64,000 bases of DNA from Pirellulales bacterium (GTDB lineage Bacteria; Planctomycetota; Planctomycetia; Pirellulales; JADZDJ01), in contig DASRSD010000152.1 of the NCBI GenBank assembly GCA_035656635.1, forward strand, positions 9,357-73,356, written 5' to 3'. Below are positions 3,039 through 51,229 of this stretch, piece by piece. The number at the start of each line of letters is the position of its first letter. Position 1 is the stretch's first letter. Made by a program: the position numbers and the translations under genes. The notes below the pieces were generated by a model, which searched no databases, was not told where the DNA came from, and saw nothing but the letters and a program-made list of their open reading frames with translations.

Positions 3039-6000
3039 GCTGCTGGGTTGAATTCCTCGCGGAACTGATTGATTACGGAAGGGTGATAAAGTTGAGATTC
3101 ATACCCCGGTTCATATGGAATCCCTTGCCATTGCAGAGTATCAAGATGAGCCGCTCGCTGCCAATCGTAAAGTTCATTGTAGACACCCCGTGTCTGCTCC
3201 ATAATTTGCGATTCCGTTAGCTCGTGCATGTAGAAGTTGATGTCATGCGCCGTCGTTTGACCAACTTTCAAGCGAGCGAACATAGCATCATTAGGAGCGA
3301 AATCAAATTGCGACAAATGTTGTTCTACTCGTGCTAGTCCCTGTGAGGTGACCTGGGGAGTAAACTCTGGATTCAAGATATTCAGCGGATTGCTACTTGC
3401 GGCAGCAGTTTCCAATTCATCGATGCTTAACAGCTTGCCAAACAAAGATCTGGCACCGTTGAATGCCGCTTCGCCAATGCTCGGTACCAAAACCGTGGCA
3501 TTGAAGAACGCTGTGTCACTTTGGATCGCGGGATTCTCCAGAGGCAGAGAACGGTTCTCAACCGTGCGCAAACTGCCGACAATATCGGCGCCAAAAGCAT
3601 TGGGCAGGACATTTGGGATGCTCGACGAGCCGGCGTTGAACGACGGATAGTAGACGTTGACATATTGGGTATTCAGAAGTTGAATTAGGCGATCTTGGAG
3701 TACGGATAGCCTTGCATTGGCGCCATATAAATCAAGGCTTTGTCCAAGATTATCCGGCTCTTCCAAGGTGAACGGAAACGTTCCGCGTTCGCCCCCAGGA
3801 TGGGCCTGCTCCCATTCGACCGAAGCCGCGTTTAGGCTGTTAATGACACTTTTATTCTGGCTTATAGAAATCTGAGCATATATCAGAGTTCGTGCGTTAT
3901 CGAGAGCCTCGTTGGCGTGCGGCGATCCGCTCAAGACCGACTCCGGTGCGCCGAAACCGTCGGATATCCAATTTGGGTTAAAACCATCGCCGCTGTTTGT
4001 TTGCGCATTGACATCAAGCTTCGACGGCAGCATTTGGCTGGTCGAGATTGTCGAGGGCTGGCCATAAGTGCCCAGCCAGCCAAGCGAAGAGTTGTCTGTA
4101 CCGAACTCTGCAATCGTCTGGTCAATTTGGAATGTGGAATTGAAGCTGCCACTGTTGAAACTGGAATTATCTTGGCTGGTGCCATCGATTTCTTCAGTGC
4201 TGGCACCGGCGAAACCATTGCTGCCAGTCTCGTTGTCCTCCAACTCTCCGCTAGTACCTCTGCCACCGATATCGCTGTTTCCTTCCCCTTCACTTTCACC
4301 CCCGCCCAGACCTTCATCTTCACCGTCCCCCTCATCCTCGCCATCATCTAGCCCGGAGGGATCGATAAAGTTCGTCGGGCTGTTGCCGGCATAGCGATAG
4401 GTATTAATGTCGGCGTTGGCCGGGTCGGTGCTGATGAATTGCCCGGTGTGAGGATCGTAATAACGCGCCTTGAAGTAATCCAAGCCAGTGGCTGAATCTA
4501 TCTGCTGGCCGGTGAAGCCGATAGCATGATTGATCGGATTGCTGTTTTGAGAAGACGAATCACTGAGAATATTGCCAAACGAATCATACACGATGTGATC
4601 GACCACGCCGGTCAGGCCGGTGCTGGGATTGTAGGTGGCAATGTCGCGCACGCTGCCGACATTGTCGGTCAGTTGCCAGTAGGTGATGCCTGGAGCAGAT
4701 TGCGAACTAACTTGTTCGTCGGCCAGAATTTCGTCAACACCTGGCCCCCACAGGTAACGATCTTGCACGGCGCCGGTTGAATTGCTGCGAGTCAGCAATA
4801 ACTGATCGCCGTTGTAAACAAATTGCTGACCGGTTGTGCTGCCGCTTGTAGTAACGGTTTCCAACACCCGGTTGTTAAAAGCATCGTAAGCGTAGATGAC
4901 GGTTTTGGTTGGATTTTGTCCTTGGCCGTTATTGGCATCAGCGTCCGTAAGGTTGGCATAATAGTTCACCGAAATCAGCCGGTTGCGGGCATCATATGCG
5001 TAATTGATCACCGTACCGTCGGAGCCGCTGATCTGCTGAATGCGGTTCCCGTTGTTGTCGTATTTATAGGTATAAGTTCCATCGTTGGTGATTTCGTTTT
5101 GCGCGCCGATTGTAATGCCGCTGCCGGTTCGATTGCCATTGGAATCGTATGAGTACGATTCATCATTCGTTTGGGACGTTGCCCCTGTTAACTGACCATT
5201 ATTGTCATACGCGTAGGAAACGTTTTCTTGTGGATGAACATTGTTAGTTTCGCTAGTAAGACGATTGTCGGCATCATAGGTGAAGGCATAACTGGCTAGT
5301 GACGAGTGGTTTCCTTGAACATCGACCAGGCTTAGTAGGTTGCCGTTTTGATCGTAATTGTACGTGGTGGTATCGACGACCTGCGTTCCGGTTGCATTGG
5401 CCGAGCGTGTGACTGTTTGCAGTTCGCTGGCAGAATCGTACGTGAAATCGACTCGTTCTGTGGCCACCGCCCCGTTGGTGGCGGATTGGGTGACGGTTTG
5501 TTCACGGCCCATTCCGTCATATTGATAGCTCAGTGTGTAAGGTGCAGTGTTGTTACTGCCGGTAACCGCGGTTTGTGATAGATCGTTATTGGGCGCGTAA
5601 TTATTAGCAAGGGTGGTGGTAACGCCATTGGGGTTGGCACTGTCGGTGAGCGTAAACGTTGTCTTGTCTAGACTTCTTAAGGCGTCCAAATTGTAGTTGT
5701 ACGTGTATTGGCTGGTGACCTGGGCAGAACCCGTGCCGCGAATGTCAGTGGCCGTTAAGACTTGATCGTCAGGGGCATAAGAATAGGTAATAGTTTCCGA
5801 CGTCCCATTCGGGTTTGTCCATTGCTGTTGTGTGTTGCGGCCGAAGGCATCGTTCTGGTAGTGGATCGTTGTCCAGTTAAGATCCGTAGATGTCAGCAGG
5901 CTACCTTGCTGATCATAGGTGTACGTTGCAGCCGCTAGAGTAGAATTCGAACCGGACACATAGACGCCCGACTCTGTTTCAGCAATTAGTTGGTTCCGCT

Positions 6001-40193: not shown

Positions 40194-40442
40194 ATGCAAG
40201 ACCAAGAACTTCTCCGGCGAATCGTATCAGACCCCAAAGTTTTGGTTGGAAAGCCAGCCATCAAAGGTACGCGGCTCTCGGTTGATTTTATTCTTAACTT
40301 GCTGGCACACGGCGCAACGATCGAAGATATTACGGCCGAATATCAAGGCGTTGTCCAGGAAGATATTCAAGCCTGCTTGTTATTCGCTTCGCAGTCCATT
40401 TCGAATACAGCGTTCATGCCTTTGGAGGCGGAGACCACCTAG
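40194..40442 (+). CDS. DUF433 antitoxin-like protein
   Basis: IVSDPKVLVGKPAIKGTRLSVDFILNLLAHGATIEDITAEYQGVVQEDIQACLLFA follows the DUF433 pattern. An extended -10 (TGcTATAAT) lies at 40166-40174. Confidence 0.75.
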   Translation: MQDQELLRRIVSDPKVLVGKPAIKGTRLSVDFILNLLAHGATIEDITAEYQGVVQEDIQACLLFASQSISNTAFMPLEAETT

Positions 40443-40802
40443 GTGCGGTTCCTTGTCGATGAATGCACTGGCCCCAGTGTAGCGCGTTGGCTACGCGAAC
40501 AATCGCACGAAGTGTTTTCTGTATTCGACGAAGCCCGAGGCATGACGGATGACGCTGTCATACGGAAGGCTCATTCCGAGAATTGGATTCTGATCACGAA
40601 CGACAAGGATTTTGGCGAGAAGGTCTATCGGCAGGGGCAGCCTCATCGCGGGATCATCCTCTTGCGGTTTGTCGACGAAAGATCGGCTGCCAAAATCCAA
40701 GCCCTACGAAAGCTGTTGGTTGCATTTGCGAACCAATTGGCCGACCAGTTTGTCGTGGTCACACCATCTCAGGTCCGTTTTGGAGGACCAGCGCATCCAT
40801 GA
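40443..40802 (+). CDS. DUF5615 / Mut7-C-like PIN-fold toxin
   Basis: A GTG start abuts the DUF433 stop. MRFLVDECTG...ILITNDKDFGEKV...GIILLRF is the typical DUF5615 layout. Confidence 0.7.
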   Translation: MRFLVDECTGPSVARWLREQSHEVFSVFDEARGMTDDAVIRKAHSENWILITNDKDFGEKVYRQGQPHRGIILLRFVDERSAAKIQALRKLLVAFANQLADQFVVVTPSQVRFGGPAHP

Positions 40803-44551: not shown

Positions 44552-44785
44552 TCAGCCCACTGCCACGTCGACATATTCCGACATGGATGTTGGTTGCGGA
44601 ATAGGTAAACCGGCGCGGCGCATGCCTTCGAAATGGAAATCCAACGCTTCTTGAATGTTCGTCTTCACTTCGTCCAACGTGTCACCGCAGGACACACAGC
44701 CTGGAACATCGGGTAAATAGGCGCTGTAGCTCCCATCATTTGCTTTTTCAATGATTGCTAGGTATTTGTCCATCTGAGCCCTCAC
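44552..44785 (-). CDS. hicB: HicB-family antitoxin
   Basis: YLAIIEKANDGSYSAYLPDVPGCVSCGDTLDEVKTNIQEALDFHFEGM matches the HicB/UPF0150 N-terminal domain. The start is either a GTGA overlap with the hicA stop or the ATG at 44773. Confidence 0.8.
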   Translation of the reverse strand: MRAQMDKYLAIIEKANDGSYSAYLPDVPGCVSCGDTLDEVKTNIQEALDFHFEGMRRAGLPIPQPTSMSEYVDVAVG

Positions 44786-44973
44786 TTCAATCCCGCCTGT
44801 CTAAATATACTATTCAGCGTCTTGGGCGGTACATCGCGGTTCAGTTTTCCCCCGCCGGGAACTGTAACTTTGCCGGGAAGTGTCGGATGTGCATATTGCA
44901 TGTGACTGCCTTTGGTCGTTTCCAAAATCCAACCCGCTGCTTCAATCTGTTTAATCACATCGCGATACTTCAT
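44782..44973 (-). CDS. hicA: HicA-family mRNA interferase toxin
   Basis: MKYRDVIKQIEAAGWILETTKGSHMQYAHPTLPGKVTVPGGGKLNRDVPPKTLNSIFRQAGLK (63 aa) is a typical HicA. The rest of ORF 44782..45558 is antisense junk. Confidence 0.85.
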   Translation of the reverse strand: MKYRDVIKQIEAAGWILETTKGSHMQYAHPTLPGKVTVPGGGKLNRDVPPKTLNSIFRQAGLK

Positions 44974-46340
44974 TATTTCCGCACTTCGATCTCCGTCAAA
45001 ACTTCGTCCAAGCAATCGACCATGAAGTCGGCATCGTCTATGGTGATGCACATCGGCGGCTTGATGCGCAGCGTGTTGCCGAACAGGCCCCCTTTGCCGA
45101 TCAGCAGCCCGCGGTGCTTGCACATTTCCAACACGTCGGCGGCTTCGGTATTGGCGGGCTCCTTGGTTTTGCGATCGCGCACCAATTCCACGCCCAGCAT
45201 CAGGCCCAGGCCGCGCACTTCGCCAATCAGCTTGTGCCGCTCCTGCAATTCTTTCAGCCGATTTTTCAAATGCGTGCCAACTTTCTTGGCGTTGGCTTGA
45301 ATGTTTTCCTGGTCGATCACTTCCAGCGTGGCCAGGCCTTGCACCATCGAAATGGGGTTGCCGCCATAGGTGTTGAAGTGGATGCGGTTTTTCATCATCT
45401 TGGCAATTTCCATCCGTGTGGTGCAGGCGCCCAGCGGCACGCCGTTGCCGATGCCTTTGGCCATGGTGACCATGTCCGGCGTGACGCCGAAATTCTCGAA
45501 GCCCCAAAAATGCTCGCCGGTGCGGCCGAAGCCCGTTTGCACTTCGTCGGCAATGCATAGGCCGCCCGCTTTGTGGACAATGTCGTACACAATTTTGAAA
45601 TACTCCGGCGGCGGCGTCACCGCTCCTCCTACGCCTTGAATCGGCTCAGCAATGAAGGCGGCCATCTGCCCGCTGGTTTCGTACTTAATGACATTCTCCA
45701 CGTCGTGGGCGCATTTCAGGCCGCAACTGGGATATTCCAATCCGTACGGGCAGCGGTAACAGTAGGGGGCCAGCGCGTTTTTCACGCTGATCGTGGGATT
45801 AGTTTTGAACTTCCACGTGCTGTGGGCCGTTAGTGCCATCGTGGCCTGCGTGCCGCCGTGGTAGCCGTTGCGCAGGCTGATGACTTCGCTGTTGCCGGTG
45901 AATTCGCGCGAGGAAAGAATCGCAATTTCGTTCGCTTCGCTGCCAGAATTGGTGAAATATGTGACCGAAAGATTGCTCCCCTCGGGCATATGCTCGGCTA
46001 ATTTTTTGCCGAATTGCCCGATGGTGGGATGCAAATAAATTGTGGTCACATGCTGGAGCTTGCCGACCTGCTCCTGCACTTTTTTGACAATCTGCGGATG
46101 GCAATGGCCGACCGACACCGTGACAATGCCGGCAAACGCATCGAGATATTGCTTCCCCTTCTCGTCCCACAAATACTGCATTTTCCCTTCGACCAACAGC
46201 AGCGGAGCTTTGTAAAACGTCAAGAGGCCGGGCGTGAGATACTGCTGCCGCAGGGCCAGCACTTCCTCGCGGCTGGGGCCTTTGTACGGCGACGGTTTAT
46301 GATCCGAAATCGGCAACGATGCATGCGTTTGCGTGGCCAC
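44973..46340 (-). CDS. class-III aminotransferase, AGXT2-like (beta-alanine / 3-aminoisobutyrate:pyruvate type)
   Basis: SGSEANE...IAEPIQGVGG...DEVQTGFGRTG...TMAKGIGNG contains the PLP-binding Lys motif. The functional call uses the context of the pyrimidine-catabolic genes. Confidence 0.8.
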   Translation of the reverse strand: MATQTHASLPISDHKPSPYKGPSREEVLALRQQYLTPGLLTFYKAPLLLVEGKMQYLWDEKGKQYLDAFAGIVTVSVGHCHPQIVKKVQEQVGKLQHVTTIYLHPTIGQFGKKLAEHMPEGSNLSVTYFTNSGSEANEIAILSSREFTGNSEVISLRNGYHGGTQATMALTAHSTWKFKTNPTISVKNALAPYCYRCPYGLEYPSCGLKCAHDVENVIKYETSGQMAAFIAEPIQGVGGAVTPPPEYFKIVYDIVHKAGGLCIADEVQTGFGRTGEHFWGFENFGVTPDMVTMAKGIGNGVPLGACTTRMEIAKMMKNRIHFNTYGGNPISMVQGLATLEVIDQENIQANAKKVGTHLKNRLKELQERHKLIGEVRGLGLMLGVELVRDRKTKEPANTEAADVLEMCKHRGLLIGKGGLFGNTLRIKPPMCITIDDADFMVDCLDEVLTEIEVRK

Positions 46341-46560
46341 GAGTAAATCTCCGACGGAGTTTCTGGTTCGGTTCCGATGTTTCTCACCCGATTTTAACGG
46401 GTGCTGGCCGGCTCCGCTACGCCGCTGGGCTGCCCGCGGTGGCCGCAGCCGTCAGGACCATCGCCGAGTGTTTCCAAACCCACCTTTTGGATGACACCGA
46501 GAATTACGTGGTTCCCATTTCGAGGGGACTTCAATCCCATTGTCCCACGAACCCAAAGCA

Positions 46561-46609
46561 AATGGCTGGGTAGTGTCCTAATTTGAAATTAGGACACTAC
46601 CAATGGCTG
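46561..46609. repeat. perfect 33-bp palindrome flanked by 8-bp direct repeats
   Basis: The layout is aatggctg | ggtagtgtcctaattt g aaattaggacactacc | aatggctg. It lies in the divergent promoter region between the aminotransferase gene and the ArsR/SdpR-like gene. Confidence 0.9.
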
Positions 46610-46714
46610 AGCTTGCTTGACATATTTTTTTGGCCCGGCTATATTTCGGTAGTTAGCGAAATAACGAATTAACGGGCACAGGCCGGGTTCGAATCAGGAC
46701 GCCATCAACCGCGG

Positions 46715-46999
46715 ATGAACGCTGTCTTTCAAGCCTTGAGCGATCCCACCCGGCGGCAGGTTTTACAACTGCTGCGCAAGCGCGAGATGACCGCCGGCGA
46801 ATTGGCCGAAAAGTTCCCACTGGCGAAATCGACCCTATCGGGCCACTTCAACATTTTGAAAAACGCCGGCTTAATCGTGGCCGAGAAAAACGGCACCAGC
46901 ATTAAATACAGCCTGAATTTATCTGTCGTGGAGCAAACCATGGCCGCGGTGATGGATTTGTTCGACGTCGGCAAACCCAACAAAAAGGGAAAACCATGA
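46715..46999 (+). CDS. ArsR/SdpR-family transcriptional repressor
   Basis: FQALSDPTRRQVLQLLRKREMTAGELAEKFPLAKSTLSGHFNILKNAGLI is an ArsR-type winged HTH. It is followed by an overlapping SdpI-like gene. Confidence 0.85.
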   Translation: MNAVFQALSDPTRRQVLQLLRKREMTAGELAEKFPLAKSTLSGHFNILKNAGLIVAEKNGTSIKYSLNLSVVEQTMAAVMDLFDVGKPNKKGKP

Positions 47000-47724
47000 A
47001 ACCTACCTGGCGCACCGAATTGCCGCAGTGGATCGTCATCGCCGCCATGTTTGCCGTGGCGGCCTGGGCCTGGCCGCAGCTGCCGGAGCGGATTCCCATT
47101 CACTGGAACTTAAAAGGCGATATCGACGGCTATGGCAGCAAGTTCACCGGGTTGCTGTTGTTGCCGATCACGATCCTCGTGCTGTACTGCGTGTTTCGGC
47201 TCGTGCATTTGATCGATCCAGGCAAGGAAAACTACGCCACGTTTACCAACGCCTTCACCGCCGTGCGGATGGCGTTTGTGTTTTTTATGACCGGAGTTTA
47301 TGTCTTTTCGTTGCTGTCGATCTTCGGCTACAAAGTGAATATGACGACGCTGGTGTGTCTCGACACGGGAGCGTTGTTTTTGGTGATTGGCAATTTCATG
47401 AGCAAAATCCGGCCCAACTGGTTTGTCGGCGTGCGCACACCGTGGACGCTGTCCAGCAAAATGTCGTGGAACAAAACGCATCGCCTGGCCGGTTGGCTGT
47501 TTGTGCTGATGGGTCTGTCAGTGGCGGCGCTGGGAGTGGTTCAAACCACGTGGATGTTCATCTGCATGCTGGTGGTAGTTGTGGGATGCCTGGCCTGGAT
47601 GACCATCTATTCCTATCTGGTCTATCGCCAAGACCCCGACCGCACTTCCCCGGCCGGCGTTTCGCCAGAGACAATCGTATTACCGGAGGCATCTGAAGAA
47701 AGTCGCGTGGATAAATTCACATAG
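46996..47724 (+). CDS. SdpI/YhfL-family membrane protein (DUF1648 plus SdpI domains)
   Basis: An ATGA overlaps the sdpR-like stop. It has several TM segments. IPIHWNLKGDIDGYGSK fits DUF1648 and NWFVGVRTPWTLSS..W fits the SdpI motif. Confidence 0.8.
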   Translation: MKPTWRTELPQWIVIAAMFAVAAWAWPQLPERIPIHWNLKGDIDGYGSKFTGLLLLPITILVLYCVFRLVHLIDPGKENYATFTNAFTAVRMAFVFFMTGVYVFSLLSIFGYKVNMTTLVCLDTGALFLVIGNFMSKIRPNWFVGVRTPWTLSSKMSWNKTHRLAGWLFVLMGLSVAALGVVQTTWMFICMLVVVVGCLAWMTIYSYLVYRQDPDRTSPAGVSPETIVLPEASEESRVDKFT

Positions 47725-47772
47725 CCAAGCTAAAATGAAGCAACCTCCACCGACTTGATTGGGCGCTCGGAC

Positions 47773-48009
47773 ATGACTCTTGATCGCATCACTTTCGACG
47801 ACCGAATTATGGGCGGAAAAGCCTGCATTCGAGGACTACGGATTCCCGTCAGTGTCGTCATCAAATTACTGGCTGGCGGCATGAATGTGGACGAAATTTT
47901 GGCGGATTATCCCGATCTTGAACGGGAAGATATCCAGCAATGCTTGCTCTATGCGGCAATGCTTGCTAATGACGATGATACCGGACCGGGCGCAGTTGGG
48001 GCTGCGTGA
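47773..48009 (+). CDS. DUF433 antitoxin-like protein (second copy)
   Basis: ITFDDRIMGGKACIRGLRIPVSVVIKLLAGGMNVDEILADYPDLEREDIQQCLLYA. I prefer the ATG at 47773 over the TTG at 47755. Confidence 0.75.
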   Translation: MTLDRITFDDRIMGGKACIRGLRIPVSVVIKLLAGGMNVDEILADYPDLEREDIQQCLLYAAMLANDDDTGPGAVGAA

Positions 48010-48150
48010 ATGAAACTCCTGCTCGACATGGGTGTCTCGCTTCATACTGTGGAATATCTGCGGAAAATCGGCCACAACGCCGACCATCTGAGAGCGCGGA
48101 TTAGCCTACCTCGGTTGGCGGCAATATCATTTTGGATAAAGCGGCAATGG
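48010..48150 (+). pseudogene. DUF5615/PIN-like toxin, 5' fragment (frameshifted, then interrupted)
   Basis: MKLLLDMGVSLHTVEYLRKIGHNADHLRA is followed, in another frame, by ..GGNIILDKAAMA. This is collinear with residues 1-45 or so of the intact copy at 40443. Homology stops near 48150. Confidence 0.65.
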
Positions 48151-48249
48151 CCCGATTGGCTCTTGCCGCTTCCCTAGTGCGGCCTGGCCGCGGCTTTCGC
48201 CGGTTGCTACTCACCGCGACGCAAGCCTTCTTCTTTGCCTGCCCACTTT

Positions 48250-48296
48250 CGTGGGCCAACGGCCCAACCTGCAAAAGCCAGGGGCATCGCCCCTGG
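48250..48296 (+). repeat. REP element (two-hairpin unit) upstream of the RAYT gene
   Basis: cgtgggccaacggcccaacctgcaaaagccaggggcatcgcccctgg contains the hairpins gggcc-aac-ggccc and ccagggg-c(a/g)t(c/t)g-cccctgg. Confidence 0.85.
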
Positions 48297-48748
48297 AACG
48301 CATCGCTTTATCATCGATCCTGGTCCATTTGGTCTTCAGCACCAAGAATCGCGAACCTTGGATTCGCCCCGCGATGGAATCGGAGTTATTCGCCTACGGC
48401 ACCACGGTGTTCAAGAATGCCGGCTGTCCGACACTGGCCATGGATGGCATGGCCGATCACATTCACGTTCTATTGAATCTTGCGCGCGTGAAATCGATCG
48501 CCGAGATCGTGGAGGAGTTGAAAACCAGCACATCGAAGTGGATCAAAACGAAGGGGGCGGATTTTCGCGGCTTTCATTGGCAGGCCGGTTACGGCGCGTT
48601 TTCGGTCAGCCAGTCGAAGGTGGCGGATGTTGTCGGATATATCCAAGCGCAAAAAGAGCATCATCGTGGGCGATCGTTCCAAGATGAATTTCGTGGATTG
48701 CTGGAGCGACACAAGATAGCGTTCGATGAGCGATACGTGTGGGATTGA
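48251..48748 (+). CDS. REP-associated tyrosine transposase (RAYT, IS200/IS605 Y1 family)
   Basis: ILVHLVFSTKNREPWI...MADHIHVLLNL...WQAGYGAFSVSQS...YIQAQKEHHR contains the HUH and catalytic Tyr motifs. The start is uncertain: the only in-frame start is the GTG inside the REP. Confidence 0.8.
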   Translation: MGQRPNLQKPGASPLERIALSSILVHLVFSTKNREPWIRPAMESELFAYGTTVFKNAGCPTLAMDGMADHIHVLLNLARVKSIAEIVEELKTSTSKWIKTKGADFRGFHWQAGYGAFSVSQSKVADVVGYIQAQKEHHRGRSFQDEFRGLLERHKIAFDERYVWD

Positions 48749-48837
48749 TGGGCAGTCGGCGCGCGGCAAGGGGGCGGCAAGACGGGCGGCAAGAGCGCCC
48801 CGTTGGGGCTTGAATGAATAATTCTCGCGCCCCGCAT

Positions 48838-49231
48838 CCAGGGGCGTTGCCCCTGGCTATTACAGGTTGGGCCGTTGGCCCACGGCGATGTTGCGTTGCC
48901 TCGTAGGTTGGGCCTTCGGCCCACGGCACGATTTGAATAAATATTTGCGATCTAATTCCAGGGGCGTTGCCCCTGGCTATTGCAGGTTGGGCCGTTGGCC
49001 CACATGAATGACGATGCCTCTGGCTATGGCGGGGTTGGGCCGTGCGCCCTGTGCCCCGAAGGGGCAACCTGCGCTAGCCCAGCGTCGCAGACTCGCCGTG
49101 GTCGAGCCAAGCGCAGCGTCGGCCTGGGTATGCTGGCCGAATGATTCGCCAACGGGGCGCTCTTGCCTTCCTCGGCCGTTGGCCCACGGGACATTTGCCT
49201 CTGGCCATTGCGCGCTGGGCCTTCGGCCCAG
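48838..49231 (-). repeat. array of REP elements in inverted orientation (BIME-like)
   Basis: Full units at 48838-48884 and 48958-49004 are reverse complements of 48250-48296, matching at about 44 of 47 positions. Partial hairpin units lie at 48905-48926, 49033-49065, 49173-49189 and 49215-49231. Confidence 0.85.
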
Positions 49232-49350
49232 CGGGGTTACTTGCGCCTCTTCAGCCCCAAGGCCGCTGCACGTGCTGTCGGTAGCCCCCACAGATTCATG
49301 AGATGAACTGTAGCGGAGTCAACCGATGAGGAGATTGTGCGATTAGGGGC

Positions 49351-49592
49351 TTCAGAGAAAGCCGCGTCATAGCAATTTTTGGCCTAGATTTCATCCATAT
49401 TTTAGCGTTGCAACGGCTTGCTCACCCGTCAGTCGTTTTGTTTCGATTGCCCCAATTCACGACCAAGGAAATCAACCATCGCTTGGAGCAGTTGCTATCG
49501 AAGTACGAAGCCCAATTAACTGCGGGCGCAATTTTGGTAGTCGACCCAAATCGGATTCGAGTTAGAATGCTTCCCATTTGGTAAGCCACTTT
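49351..49592 (+). pseudogene. DUF5615/PIN-like toxin, 3' fragment
   Basis: Own translation gives RESRVIAIFGLDFIHILALQRLAHPSVVLFRLPQFTTKEINHRLEQLLSKYEAQLTAGAILVVDPNRIRVRMLPIW*. This aligns with SENWILITNDKDFGEKVYRQGQPHRGIILLRFVDERSAAKIQALRKLL...FVVVTPSQVRF of the intact copy. Confidence 0.65.
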
Positions 49593-49603
49593 CAATAATT
49601 CCA

Positions 49604-51229
49604 ATGCCGGCGGATGACGAAAGGCTGAACATGGCCGAAATTTCCCTCGCACCTGCAGCGTCTCCACCCGACGGCATTGTCGAACTCGCTGCCGACGTCT
49701 CGGGCTCTCGCTTTTACAGCGCCACCATGGCGCCGGTGAATCGCGCCGGCCGGCACTGGGGCATGAAAGATATTGCCGTGCTGTGGATCAGCATGTCGGC
49801 GTGTATTCCCACGTACATGCTCGCCTCGGGCCTCATTAACGGCGGCATGAATTGGTGGCAGGCCGTCCTCACCATTTTTCTGGCCAACATGATTGTGCTC
49901 CTGCCGATGGTGTTGAACGCGCATGCCGGCACGAAATACGGCATTCCCTTCCCCGTGTATTGCCGCGCCAGCTTTGGTATTCGTGGGGCGAACGTTCCGG
50001 CCATGTTGCGGGCACTGGTCGCTTGCGGCTGGTTCGGCATTCAAACGTGGATTGGCGGTGATGCTATTTACCGAATTTTCACTGCGTTTATTCCCAGTTG
50101 GGATCAATTGCCCAAATACTTTGGCGATGCCGGCAATTCCAGTTCCGGCGTGAACATTGCACAGCTCGGCTGCTTTTTGGGATTTTGGCTGATCAACATG
50201 GGCGTGATTTACATGGGGATCGAGTCAATCCGCATTTTGCTGAACATCAAAGCGCCACTGCTCATTTTGCTCGGATTGGCACTGTTGGCCTGGGCCTATT
50301 TCAGCGCTGGCGGATTTGGCGAAATGCTCTCGCGCCCTTCGCAGTTCGCCGCCGGGCAGCCGCAGGAAGGAAAATTTTGGGGCTTCTTCATCCTTGCGCT
50401 GACCGGCAACGTTGGCTTTTGGGCCACCCTGGCGCTCAACATTCCCGACTTCAGCCGCTATGCCCGCAGCCAGCACGATCAAATGCTTGGCCAGGCGCTG
50501 GGGTTGCCGATCACCATGGCGCTGTATTCATTCATCGGCGTGGCAGTCACGTCGGCGGCATTTGTGATTTACAAAGATTTGCCTGCCGACCAAAAAAAGA
50601 ACTTGTGGGACCCCGTTTTTCTGCTGTCGCTGTTTCAGAACAAGCCGGTGCTCGTGTTCGCCATGTGCTCGTTGGCCTTGGCCACACTGGCCACGAACAT
50701 TGCCGCGAATGTCGTCAGCCCGGCCAACGATTTTGCCCACCTGTGGCCGCGGCGCATTACGTTCCGCATTGGCGGATTGATTACCGGCATCATCGGCATT
50801 CTGATTCAACCGTGGCGCATTTTGGCCAACTCCCACGTATATATCGACAAGTGGCTGGTTGGATATTCCTCGCTGCTGGGCGCCGTCGGCGGCGTGCTAA
50901 TTGCCGATTACATTGTCATCCGCCGCACGCGGCTCAATCAGCGCGGTCTGTACGAACGGCCCGGCCCTTATTGGTACGCAAGCGGTTTCAACCTGCTGGC
51001 AATTTTTTCGCTGGCGGTGGGCATCGCCCTGTGCATCCCCGGCTTTTTAGCGCAGCTGGGCGTGTTGGCACTGGCGAAAGATGCATCGCCGGCCGCAGCC
51101 AGCCTGCCGCGCATCGCCGACTATTGGGGCACGCTGTACGACTTCGCCTGGTTCACCAGCTTCGGCACCGCGTTCGTGCTGTATGTGCTGCTGATGCCGC
51201 TGTTTGGGCCAAAAGCTGCTCGCGAATGA
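49604..51229 (+). CDS. NCS1-family nucleobase:cation symporter (uracil/cytosine/hydantoin/allantoin permease type)
   Basis: The profile shows twelve TM segments. DIAVLWISMSACIPTYMLASGLI...NIPDFSRYA is characteristic of NCS1. The start may instead be the ATG at 49631. Confidence 0.85.
   Translation: MPADDERLNMAEISLAPAASPPDGIVELAADVSGSRFYSATMAPVNRAGRHWGMKDIAVLWISMSACIPTYMLASGLINGGMNWWQAVLTIFLANMIVLLPMVLNAHAGTKYGIPFPVYCRASFGIRGANVPAMLRALVACGWFGIQTWIGGDAIYRIFTAFIPSWDQLPKYFGDAGNSSSGVNIAQLGCFLGFWLINMGVIYMGIESIRILLNIKAPLLILLGLALLAWAYFSAGGFGEMLSRPSQFAAGQPQEGKFWGFFILALTGNVGFWATLALNIPDFSRYARSQHDQMLGQALGLPITMALYSFIGVAVTSAAFVIYKDLPADQKKNLWDPVFLLSLFQNKPVLVFAMCSLALATLATNIAANVVSPANDFAHLWPRRITFRIGGLITGIIGILIQPWRILANSHVYIDKWLVGYSSLLGAVGGVLIADYIVIRRTRLNQRGLYERPGPYWYASGFNLLAIFSLAVGIALCIPGFLAQLGVLALAKDASPAAASLPRIADYWGTLYDFAWFTSFGTAFVLYVLLMPLFGPKAARE

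Follow-up and report, generated by a model that had tools for sequence, protein, structure and literature searches.

In a 64,000-nt stretch of contig DASRSD010000152.1 from an uncultured Pirellulales bacterium (the window in what follows), a gene for a DUF5615 (PIN-like) toxin is split by 1.2 kb carrying a Y1 transposase gene between inverted repetitive extragenic palindromic (REP) sequences. Alignment to toxin homologs indicates that this 1.2 kb was inserted into a single gene, still recognisable as that of a toxin. Our preferred account, to which we give a probability of roughly 0.55, is that DNA of the REPIN-RAYT type (REPINs, REP doublets forming hairpins; RAYTs, REP-associated tyrosine transposases) interrupted the toxin by Y1 transposition and that the block was then remodelled. 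The account starts from what is observed: a cleanly split toxin gene, the make-up of the inserted block, a dispersed family of REPs and REPINs, transposase units at non-syntenic positions and purifying selection on the transposase.

The toxin belongs to a module that begins with a DUF433 antitoxin-like gene on the forward strand (47755 or 47773 to 48009; the gene call starts at ATG 47773). This gene is intact (Pfam PF04255, E = 1e-25), and the toxin start abuts its stop (TGA-ATG). Both toxin pieces, also on the forward strand, match Pfam DUF5615. With a provisional reconstruction of the toxin as query, 27 homologs were found, the majority exactly 121 amino acids (aa) long, and a close-family hidden Markov model (HMM) built from 21 homologs was run on the three forward frames. 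It placed the N fragment (48010-48120, codons 1-37) at positions 1-35, in frame and without a frameshift. The C fragment (49325-49592, codons 37-121, stop codon 49590-49592) was placed at positions 46-121 in one frame, with TVAESTDEEIVRLGASEKA at positions 31-49 in another. When a position-specific scoring matrix for positions 36-47 was used, TDEEIVRLGASE (49322-49357) ranked first of the 127,930 12-mers in the window, at 28.7 bits. The N fragment ends ..LPRLA and the C fragment begins DEEIVRLGASE. The break, at 48120|49325, separates codon 36 from codon 37, and the inserted block is 48121-49324 (1,204 nt). The open reading frame (ORF) of the N fragment continues into the insert and stops at 48177.

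Removal of the block and of two further nucleotides (AA, 49358-49359) gave a reconstruction of 122 aa, 74% identical end to end to P0001, the closest intact homolog, with a sole gap of 1 aa lying away from the junction. No codon is lost and none overlaps where the toxin halves meet, and the two pieces cover residues 1-36 and 37-121, respectively, of one set of best-matching homologs, P0001 included. The closest homologs are 69-74% identical and located on unrelated short contigs. These results confirm the view of the first-pass annotation of this DNA that one toxin gene is interrupted by 1.2 kb, whilst its details required correction. The breakpoints had been set between DKAAMA and RESRV (~48150 and 49351), which is ~30 nt off on both sides, and the N fragment had been described as frameshifted although the frameshift sits in the C fragment. 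The proposed continuation NIILDKAAMA was at chance level: GGNIILDKAAMA scored -11.8 bits, a value reached by 3% of 12-mers, and had no HMM match. The in-window paralog used as alignment reference (40443-40802) is intact but, because it is just 24% identical to the toxin, it is a poor ruler; P0001 (74%) is a better one.

The C fragment carries lesions of its own. The extra AA at 49358-49359 causes a +2 frameshift, and the invariant TFDLDF reads IFGLDF, replacing T53 with I and D55 with G; both residues are kept in 21/21 toxin homologs. With the insert, the frameshift and the replaced T53 and D55, the DUF5615 toxin is a pseudogene, and the DUF433 antitoxin is kept. A check of both junctions, which the first-pass annotation had proposed, found no target-site duplication or duplicated toxin codons (Smith-Waterman scores within the shuffle range). 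IS200/IS605 Y1 transposition leaves no target duplication, and the absence of one here thus fits Y1 transposition. A Logan contig assembled independently (SRR11835640) matches 45844-49810 with 100% identity and has the same arrangement, which argues against an assembler artefact.

Inside the block, a repeat search agreed with the earlier description of one REP upstream, two full inverted copies and several partial ones. The left REP (48251-48298, forward strand) consists of two hairpins, GGGCC-AAC-GGCCC and CCAGGGGC-ATC-GCCCCTGG, and folds as single-stranded DNA at -15.8 kcal/mol (z = -3.6). It forms an inverted repeat with the right REPs and is 98% identical to the left REP of L188 (L numbers denote the loci compared). 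From its first base runs a Y1 transposase ORF of 165 codons (48251-48748, forward strand; Pfam Y1_Tnp, E = 1e-23). The right arm contains a third hairpin, H3 (AGAGCGCCCCGTTGGGGCTT; 48792-48811, forward strand), which is invariant in five aligned units and forms the centre of REPINs in other genomes. On the reverse strand follow R1 (48837-48884), an inverted copy of the left REP 94% complementary to it over 48 nt, and a partial REP with hairpin 1 only (48905-48927), which is also found after the right REP in L187 and L188. A tandem duplicate on the same strand (48926-49054; direct repeats with a period of ~120 nt) comprises a spacer, the right REP R2 (48956/7-49003; 96% complementary to the left REP over 48 nt) and a partial REP. 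Beyond it lies a degenerate REPIN (49051-49231) made of a REP(+) variant (49051-49098), the reverse complement of H3 (H3rc, 49149-49167) and a degenerate REP(-) (49185-49231). It holds a 19-nt inverted repeat at 100%, and its layout is like that of 158-264-nt REPINs elsewhere. The 21-nt and 19-nt REP cores have no further copy in the 64 kb, where chance would not be expected to produce one.

The left end of the insert (48121-48180) is without any match in the rest of the window or the loci compared and contains a hairpin at about 48139-48171, formed by two inverted GCGGCAAGAG-like motifs (fold z = -2.7). The right end (49232-49324) has neither such a match nor a significant fold, and no inverted or direct repeats were found between these two unmatched ends. 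From the left REP to the toxin junction on its left is a distance of 130 nt; the right junction is ~440 nt past R1 and ~320 nt past R2. A motif, GCGGCAAG(A/G)G, is present in three tandem copies just before H3 (48764-48799), as the inverted pair that constitutes the left-end hairpin (48141-48171) and once, inverted, in the degenerate REPIN (49149-49167). This motif suggests that the unmatched left end is REP-system debris. Between the left end and the left REP is a 64-nt remnant of a 163-nt upstream segment (48181-48244, forward strand; 85% identity to L188 2680-2739 and L187 2639-2703). The full segment (L188 2680-2841, L187 2640-2802) is conserved and non-coding, without an inverted partner or an Rfam match, and is absent beside more distant transposase units. 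No sigma-70-like promoter for the transposase was found within the block; candidates turned up only in front of DUF433 and in front of the neighbouring NCS1 gene.

The protein encoded in the block had been called a RAYT. It is a REP-associated Y1 transposase, as that name implies, but it failed the NCBIfam RAYT model NF047646 (25.1 bits against a cutoff of 80) and passed the IS200 model NF033573, marginally (57.5 bits against 55). Its HUH (histidine-hydrophobic-histidine) motif (DHIHVLL) and catalytic tyrosine (GYIQAQ) align with those of ISDra2 TnpA, the nearest relative of solved structure, and E. coli TnpA-REP was absent from the PDB matches at E <= 0.01. By these profile comparisons the protein resembles IS200 TnpA more closely than it does the proteins of the curated RAYT model. 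All homologs begin MPQSLS, homology to this 150-aa family starts at 48305, and the only start available is GTG 48251, the first base of the left REP. Compared with L187 and L188, the gene has a ratio of nonsynonymous to synonymous divergence (dN/dS) of 0.09-0.12. The transposase is under purifying selection.

Related loci were gathered via the REP 21-mer and via transposase homologs. The canonical unit consists of REP(+), a ~25-nt spacer, H3rc, the 150-aa gene, H3, a spacer and REP(-), and this REP(+)-H3rc-gene-H3-REP(-) order recurs in L026, L083, L187, L188, L194, L195 and L196. Its arms, composed of REP, spacer and H3, are ~85 nt long with three hairpins and are inverted with respect to each other, REP pairing with REP over 46-48 nt at 91-96% complementarity in addition to the H3/H3rc pair. 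In L188 the unit measures 699 nt from REP to REP. Homology on the right side stops exactly at ..TTGGCCCAC in the five aligned units. The same arms also exist without a gene: 25 REP doublets in planctomycete metagenome-assembled genomes (MAGs) join them H3rc-to-H3 over 158-264 nt. By this layout, the gene-less doublets qualify as REPINs as Bertels and Rainey use the term (PMC3116915).

The full REP is found at 1-15 loci in each of 13 assemblies, mostly as REPINs; these locus counts are lower bounds, as the scan demanded an exact 21-mer. By label, 11 of the assemblies are Planctomycetota, one is Verrucomicrobiae and one is an 'uncultured bacterium', and REP matches in other phyla were bare 21-mer coincidences. 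Among the loci compared, no REP-bearing assembly showed more than one transposase gene.

Some members of the family have been modified. In L007, L010, L011, L023, L028, L045, L055 and L074 (CAZUPX01) and in L038, L080 and L091 (JANNQN01), REPINs lie within longer palindromes, with outer inverted repeats AACGTTATGCAAGTG ... CACTTGCATAACGTT ~35 nt to the left and 60 nt to the right of the REPIN. In the window, matches to the outer terminal repeat GTTATGCAAGTG of these REPINs did not rise above chance level. In L195, a Tn5-like DDE transposase gene (4159-5556, 465 aa) sits between the Y1 transposase gene and the right REP (5570-5601), an insertion sequence (IS) nested in a REP-bounded unit. In L187 (3001-3681) the transposase stop is lost (TGA to TTA), and the gene is called as 226 aa, reading through the REP region.

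The position of the units was compared between species or genera rather than within species. All eight (window, L026, L083, L187, L188, L194, L195 and L196) have different neighbours, and the seven outside the window lie between called genes, the detailed check covering L187 and L188. In the window, the module is bordered by an SdpI-like gene on one side and an NCS1 transporter gene on the other. L191 and L192 are syntenic with this region (aminotransferase, ArsR, SdpI, NCS1, NTP_transf_5 and CN_hydrolase; 74-96% aa identity), and in them SdpI is followed by NCS1 after 134 nt and 102 nt, respectively, with no DUF433, toxin, transposase or REP in the spacer. L191 and L188 are on one contig, the transposase unit being ~60 kb away between FliG-like and PTPS genes. 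Mobility of the unit is better argued by comparison: the units differ in position in every related genome examined, including the syntenic one. Transposase synonymous divergence (dS) between the window and the syntenic relative is 0.84, whilst the syntenic genes give 0.70-1.29 and the short ArsR gene 2.07, values compatible with a vertically inherited gene that has changed place. The comparative data support relocation of the unit, independently of the toxin gene.

The segment 47725-49603 is absent from both syntenic relatives (L191 6670-6802, L192 1388-1489) and is therefore lineage-specific. On this alignment, the toxin-antitoxin (TA) module itself is a lineage-specific gain or loss in a spacer of ~100-130 nt; alignment with L191 and L192 did not resolve the boundaries of its own insertion. 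In the relatives, comparison with which had been suggested earlier, the block is absent, but along with the whole TA module, and there is no orthologous toxin at the locus. A metagenome scan with DUF433 for a strain-level empty site gave at best 74% identity among the matches listed. Exact-protein look-ups with DUF433, SdpI, NCS1 and the transposase returned the source contig (Ga0376680_0000062 of JGI metagenome 3300036855) and one identical Logan contig only. In L191 (ERZ25039457 contig_22777) the NCS1, aldehyde dehydrogenase and polyphosphate kinase genes are each split into two adjacent calls, probably by long-read frameshift errors, and the state of genes in this MAG is to be read with caution. 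The window is rich in TA modules: it holds an intact second DUF433-DUF5615 pair (40194-40802) and, at 44552-45370 and downstream, further TA genes (HicA/HicB, a ParE-like toxin and Unstab_antitox).

Under our preferred account, single-strand transposition mediated by the Y1 transposase would have brought the unit, or a REPIN first, into the toxin gene. The disrupted toxin would then have been neutral DNA in which more REP material could gather. Tandem duplication and deletions would finally have reshaped the block, with loss of the left spacer, H3rc and the native transposase start. The parts of this account that we infer are the catalytic mechanism, whether the DNA arrived at once or stepwise, and the sequence in which the toxin lesions arose. 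The first-pass annotation went further, holding that such a locus would be direct evidence that the whole unit, or a REP cluster that later captured the RAYT, can insert. For the whole unit this is not established: one-step insertion of the whole unit is not demonstrated because the junctions lie off the REP ends, the block is composite and the transposase is 5'-truncated. The additional toxin lesions allow for more than one order and number of events, and the toxin may already have been dead when some of the block DNA arrived.

Several points weigh against our account. The insert does not end in REPs. Its outermost stretches, of 60 nt (left) and 93 nt (right), are unmatched in the rest of the window and in the ~190 compared loci. 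Although situated beyond the left REP, the 64-nt upstream segment is found with the unit in three contexts. The first four codons of the transposase, native ATG included, are missing, and the left spacer and H3rc are lost as well. The relatives lack the entire TA module, so that none of them offered an empty site with an intact toxin. For the source organism, the REP and transposase counts cover the 64-kb window only. The relatives are MAGs, some with assembly errors, and dS discriminates weakly because it is near saturation.

An alternative order of events, which we regard as unlikely, is that a REPIN or REP cluster entered the toxin and the transposase came later, by recombination or gene conversion between the ~85-nt arms. 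A REPIN is the unit minus the gene, so homology would be available in both arms, and the block does contain an extra degenerate REPIN and duplicated right arms. The toxin junctions, moreover, are not at the gene-flanking REPs. However, the 64-nt upstream segment outside the left REP came too, which conversion limited to the arms would not carry, and no RAYT-less version of the locus is known. Improbable in our view is that the whole 1.88-kb segment, with its toxin already interrupted, entered the SdpI-NCS1 spacer in one piece, the toxin insertion having then happened in another genome or locus. The lack of the entire 47725-49603 segment in the syntenic relatives would agree with such an import, as would closest toxin homologs that are just 69-74% identical and on unrelated short contigs. 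The transposase dS, by contrast, is like that of housekeeping genes and fits resident vertical inheritance better, and a pre-formed import would change where the toxin was hit, not what happened. It is most improbable that the pieces derive from two genes or that the contig was misassembled across repeats. In favour of this, the generic Pfam DUF5615 model let a hand-corrected N fragment reach position 46, overlapping the C fragment (34-109), but this overlap is at chance level under the close-family profile. The ends have no DNA similarity to each other, the fragments are exactly complementary and share their best homologs, and the independent assembly is identical, which largely refutes this alternative.

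Beyond transposition into the toxin, a wider interpretation can be put forward, tentatively and with doubt on our part. The planctomycete 150-aa Y1 clade might be an intermediate between IS200 elements and domesticated RAYTs: low-copy, vertically diverging, under purifying selection, with its own three-hairpin REPINs, relocating with its REPs and the upstream segment, and able to land in a gene. If this were true, the clade would provide evidence that RAYTs can move themselves and that REPINs are not confined to RAYT groups 2 and 3. If population or strain data confirm relocation, it could serve to study how a selfish IS200-like element turns into a domesticated RAYT. The present data are explained just as well by the accumulation of an IS-like element, along with its miniature derivatives, in a dead toxin gene, which would be ordinary.

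Compared with known systems, the host module is like DUF433-DUF5615 type II TA modules (PIN-like/Mut7-C-like) in having the DUF433 gene directly followed by the toxin, from a family of 121 aa. It differs in that the toxin is a pseudogene whilst the antitoxin is retained. The REPs also resemble a published RNA motif, RF01687 (Acido-Lenti-1; Weinberg et al. 2010, PMC2864571). This motif likewise has two hairpins in 46 nt, and REP(-) copies span the full model (window 48838-48882 and 48958-49002; L188 3518-3562). It was the only Rfam hit on the REPs and was sub-threshold, scoring 25-28 bits where the gathering score is 37. Unlike an RNA gene, the motif here is a DNA repeat tied to a transposase, and RF01687 may itself, given this match, be a REP of the transposase-associated kind.

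REPIN-RAYT systems were reportedly treated by Nunvar in 2010. They are described by Bertels and Rainey (2011, PMC3116915) and Bertels et al. (2017, PMC5581495); for RAYTs there is no evidence of self-transposition, they occupy the same extragenic space within a species, and REPINs are found only with groups 2 and 3 (10.1101/2021.07.10.451892; PMC5581495). The first-pass premise of domesticated, single-copy and immobile RAYTs is drawn from these two proteobacterial groups, whereas the protein here is by sequence closer to the IS200 side. The present system shares with REPIN-RAYT systems a Y1 HUH transposase directly flanked by inverted REPs, which in related assemblies are dispersed as inverted doublets at low-to-moderate copy number. 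Further points of resemblance are that no more than one transposase gene was seen per REP-bearing assembly among the compared loci, strong purifying selection and a divergence compatible with vertical descent. It differs in a protein below the RAYT model cutoff and nearer to IS200 TnpA, in ~85-nt arms with three hairpins and in a host phylum, Planctomycetota. Unlike RAYTs, which keep to the same extragenic space within a species, the units are elsewhere in every genome examined, one of them inside a (pseudo)gene.

IS200-type insertion sequences (IS200/IS605 family) encode TnpA only and are ~700 bp long. They insert without target duplication next to a short specific target, and the two ends, each with a subterminal hairpin, do not form inverted repeats with one another. 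In line with this type, the REP-to-REP core is of the right size (699 nt in L188), NF033573 is passed, ISDra2 TnpA is the best relative of solved structure, and no target duplication was seen at the toxin junctions; the loci are varied and a gene is interrupted here. In contrast, the arms are inverted repeats with 91-96% complementarity, gene-less doublets exist as a population, the insert meets the toxin away from the element ends and no conserved target motif was seen. Multiple identical transposase copies were not seen either, in a comparison in which no complete carrier genome was searched for the protein. Against what is published, relocation of the unit would be mildly surprising if the protein were a bona fide RAYT and not surprising at all for an IS200-like element with miniature derivatives. 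Taken together, the locus gives the impression of a mobile element behaving in an ordinary way, not of a system of a new kind.

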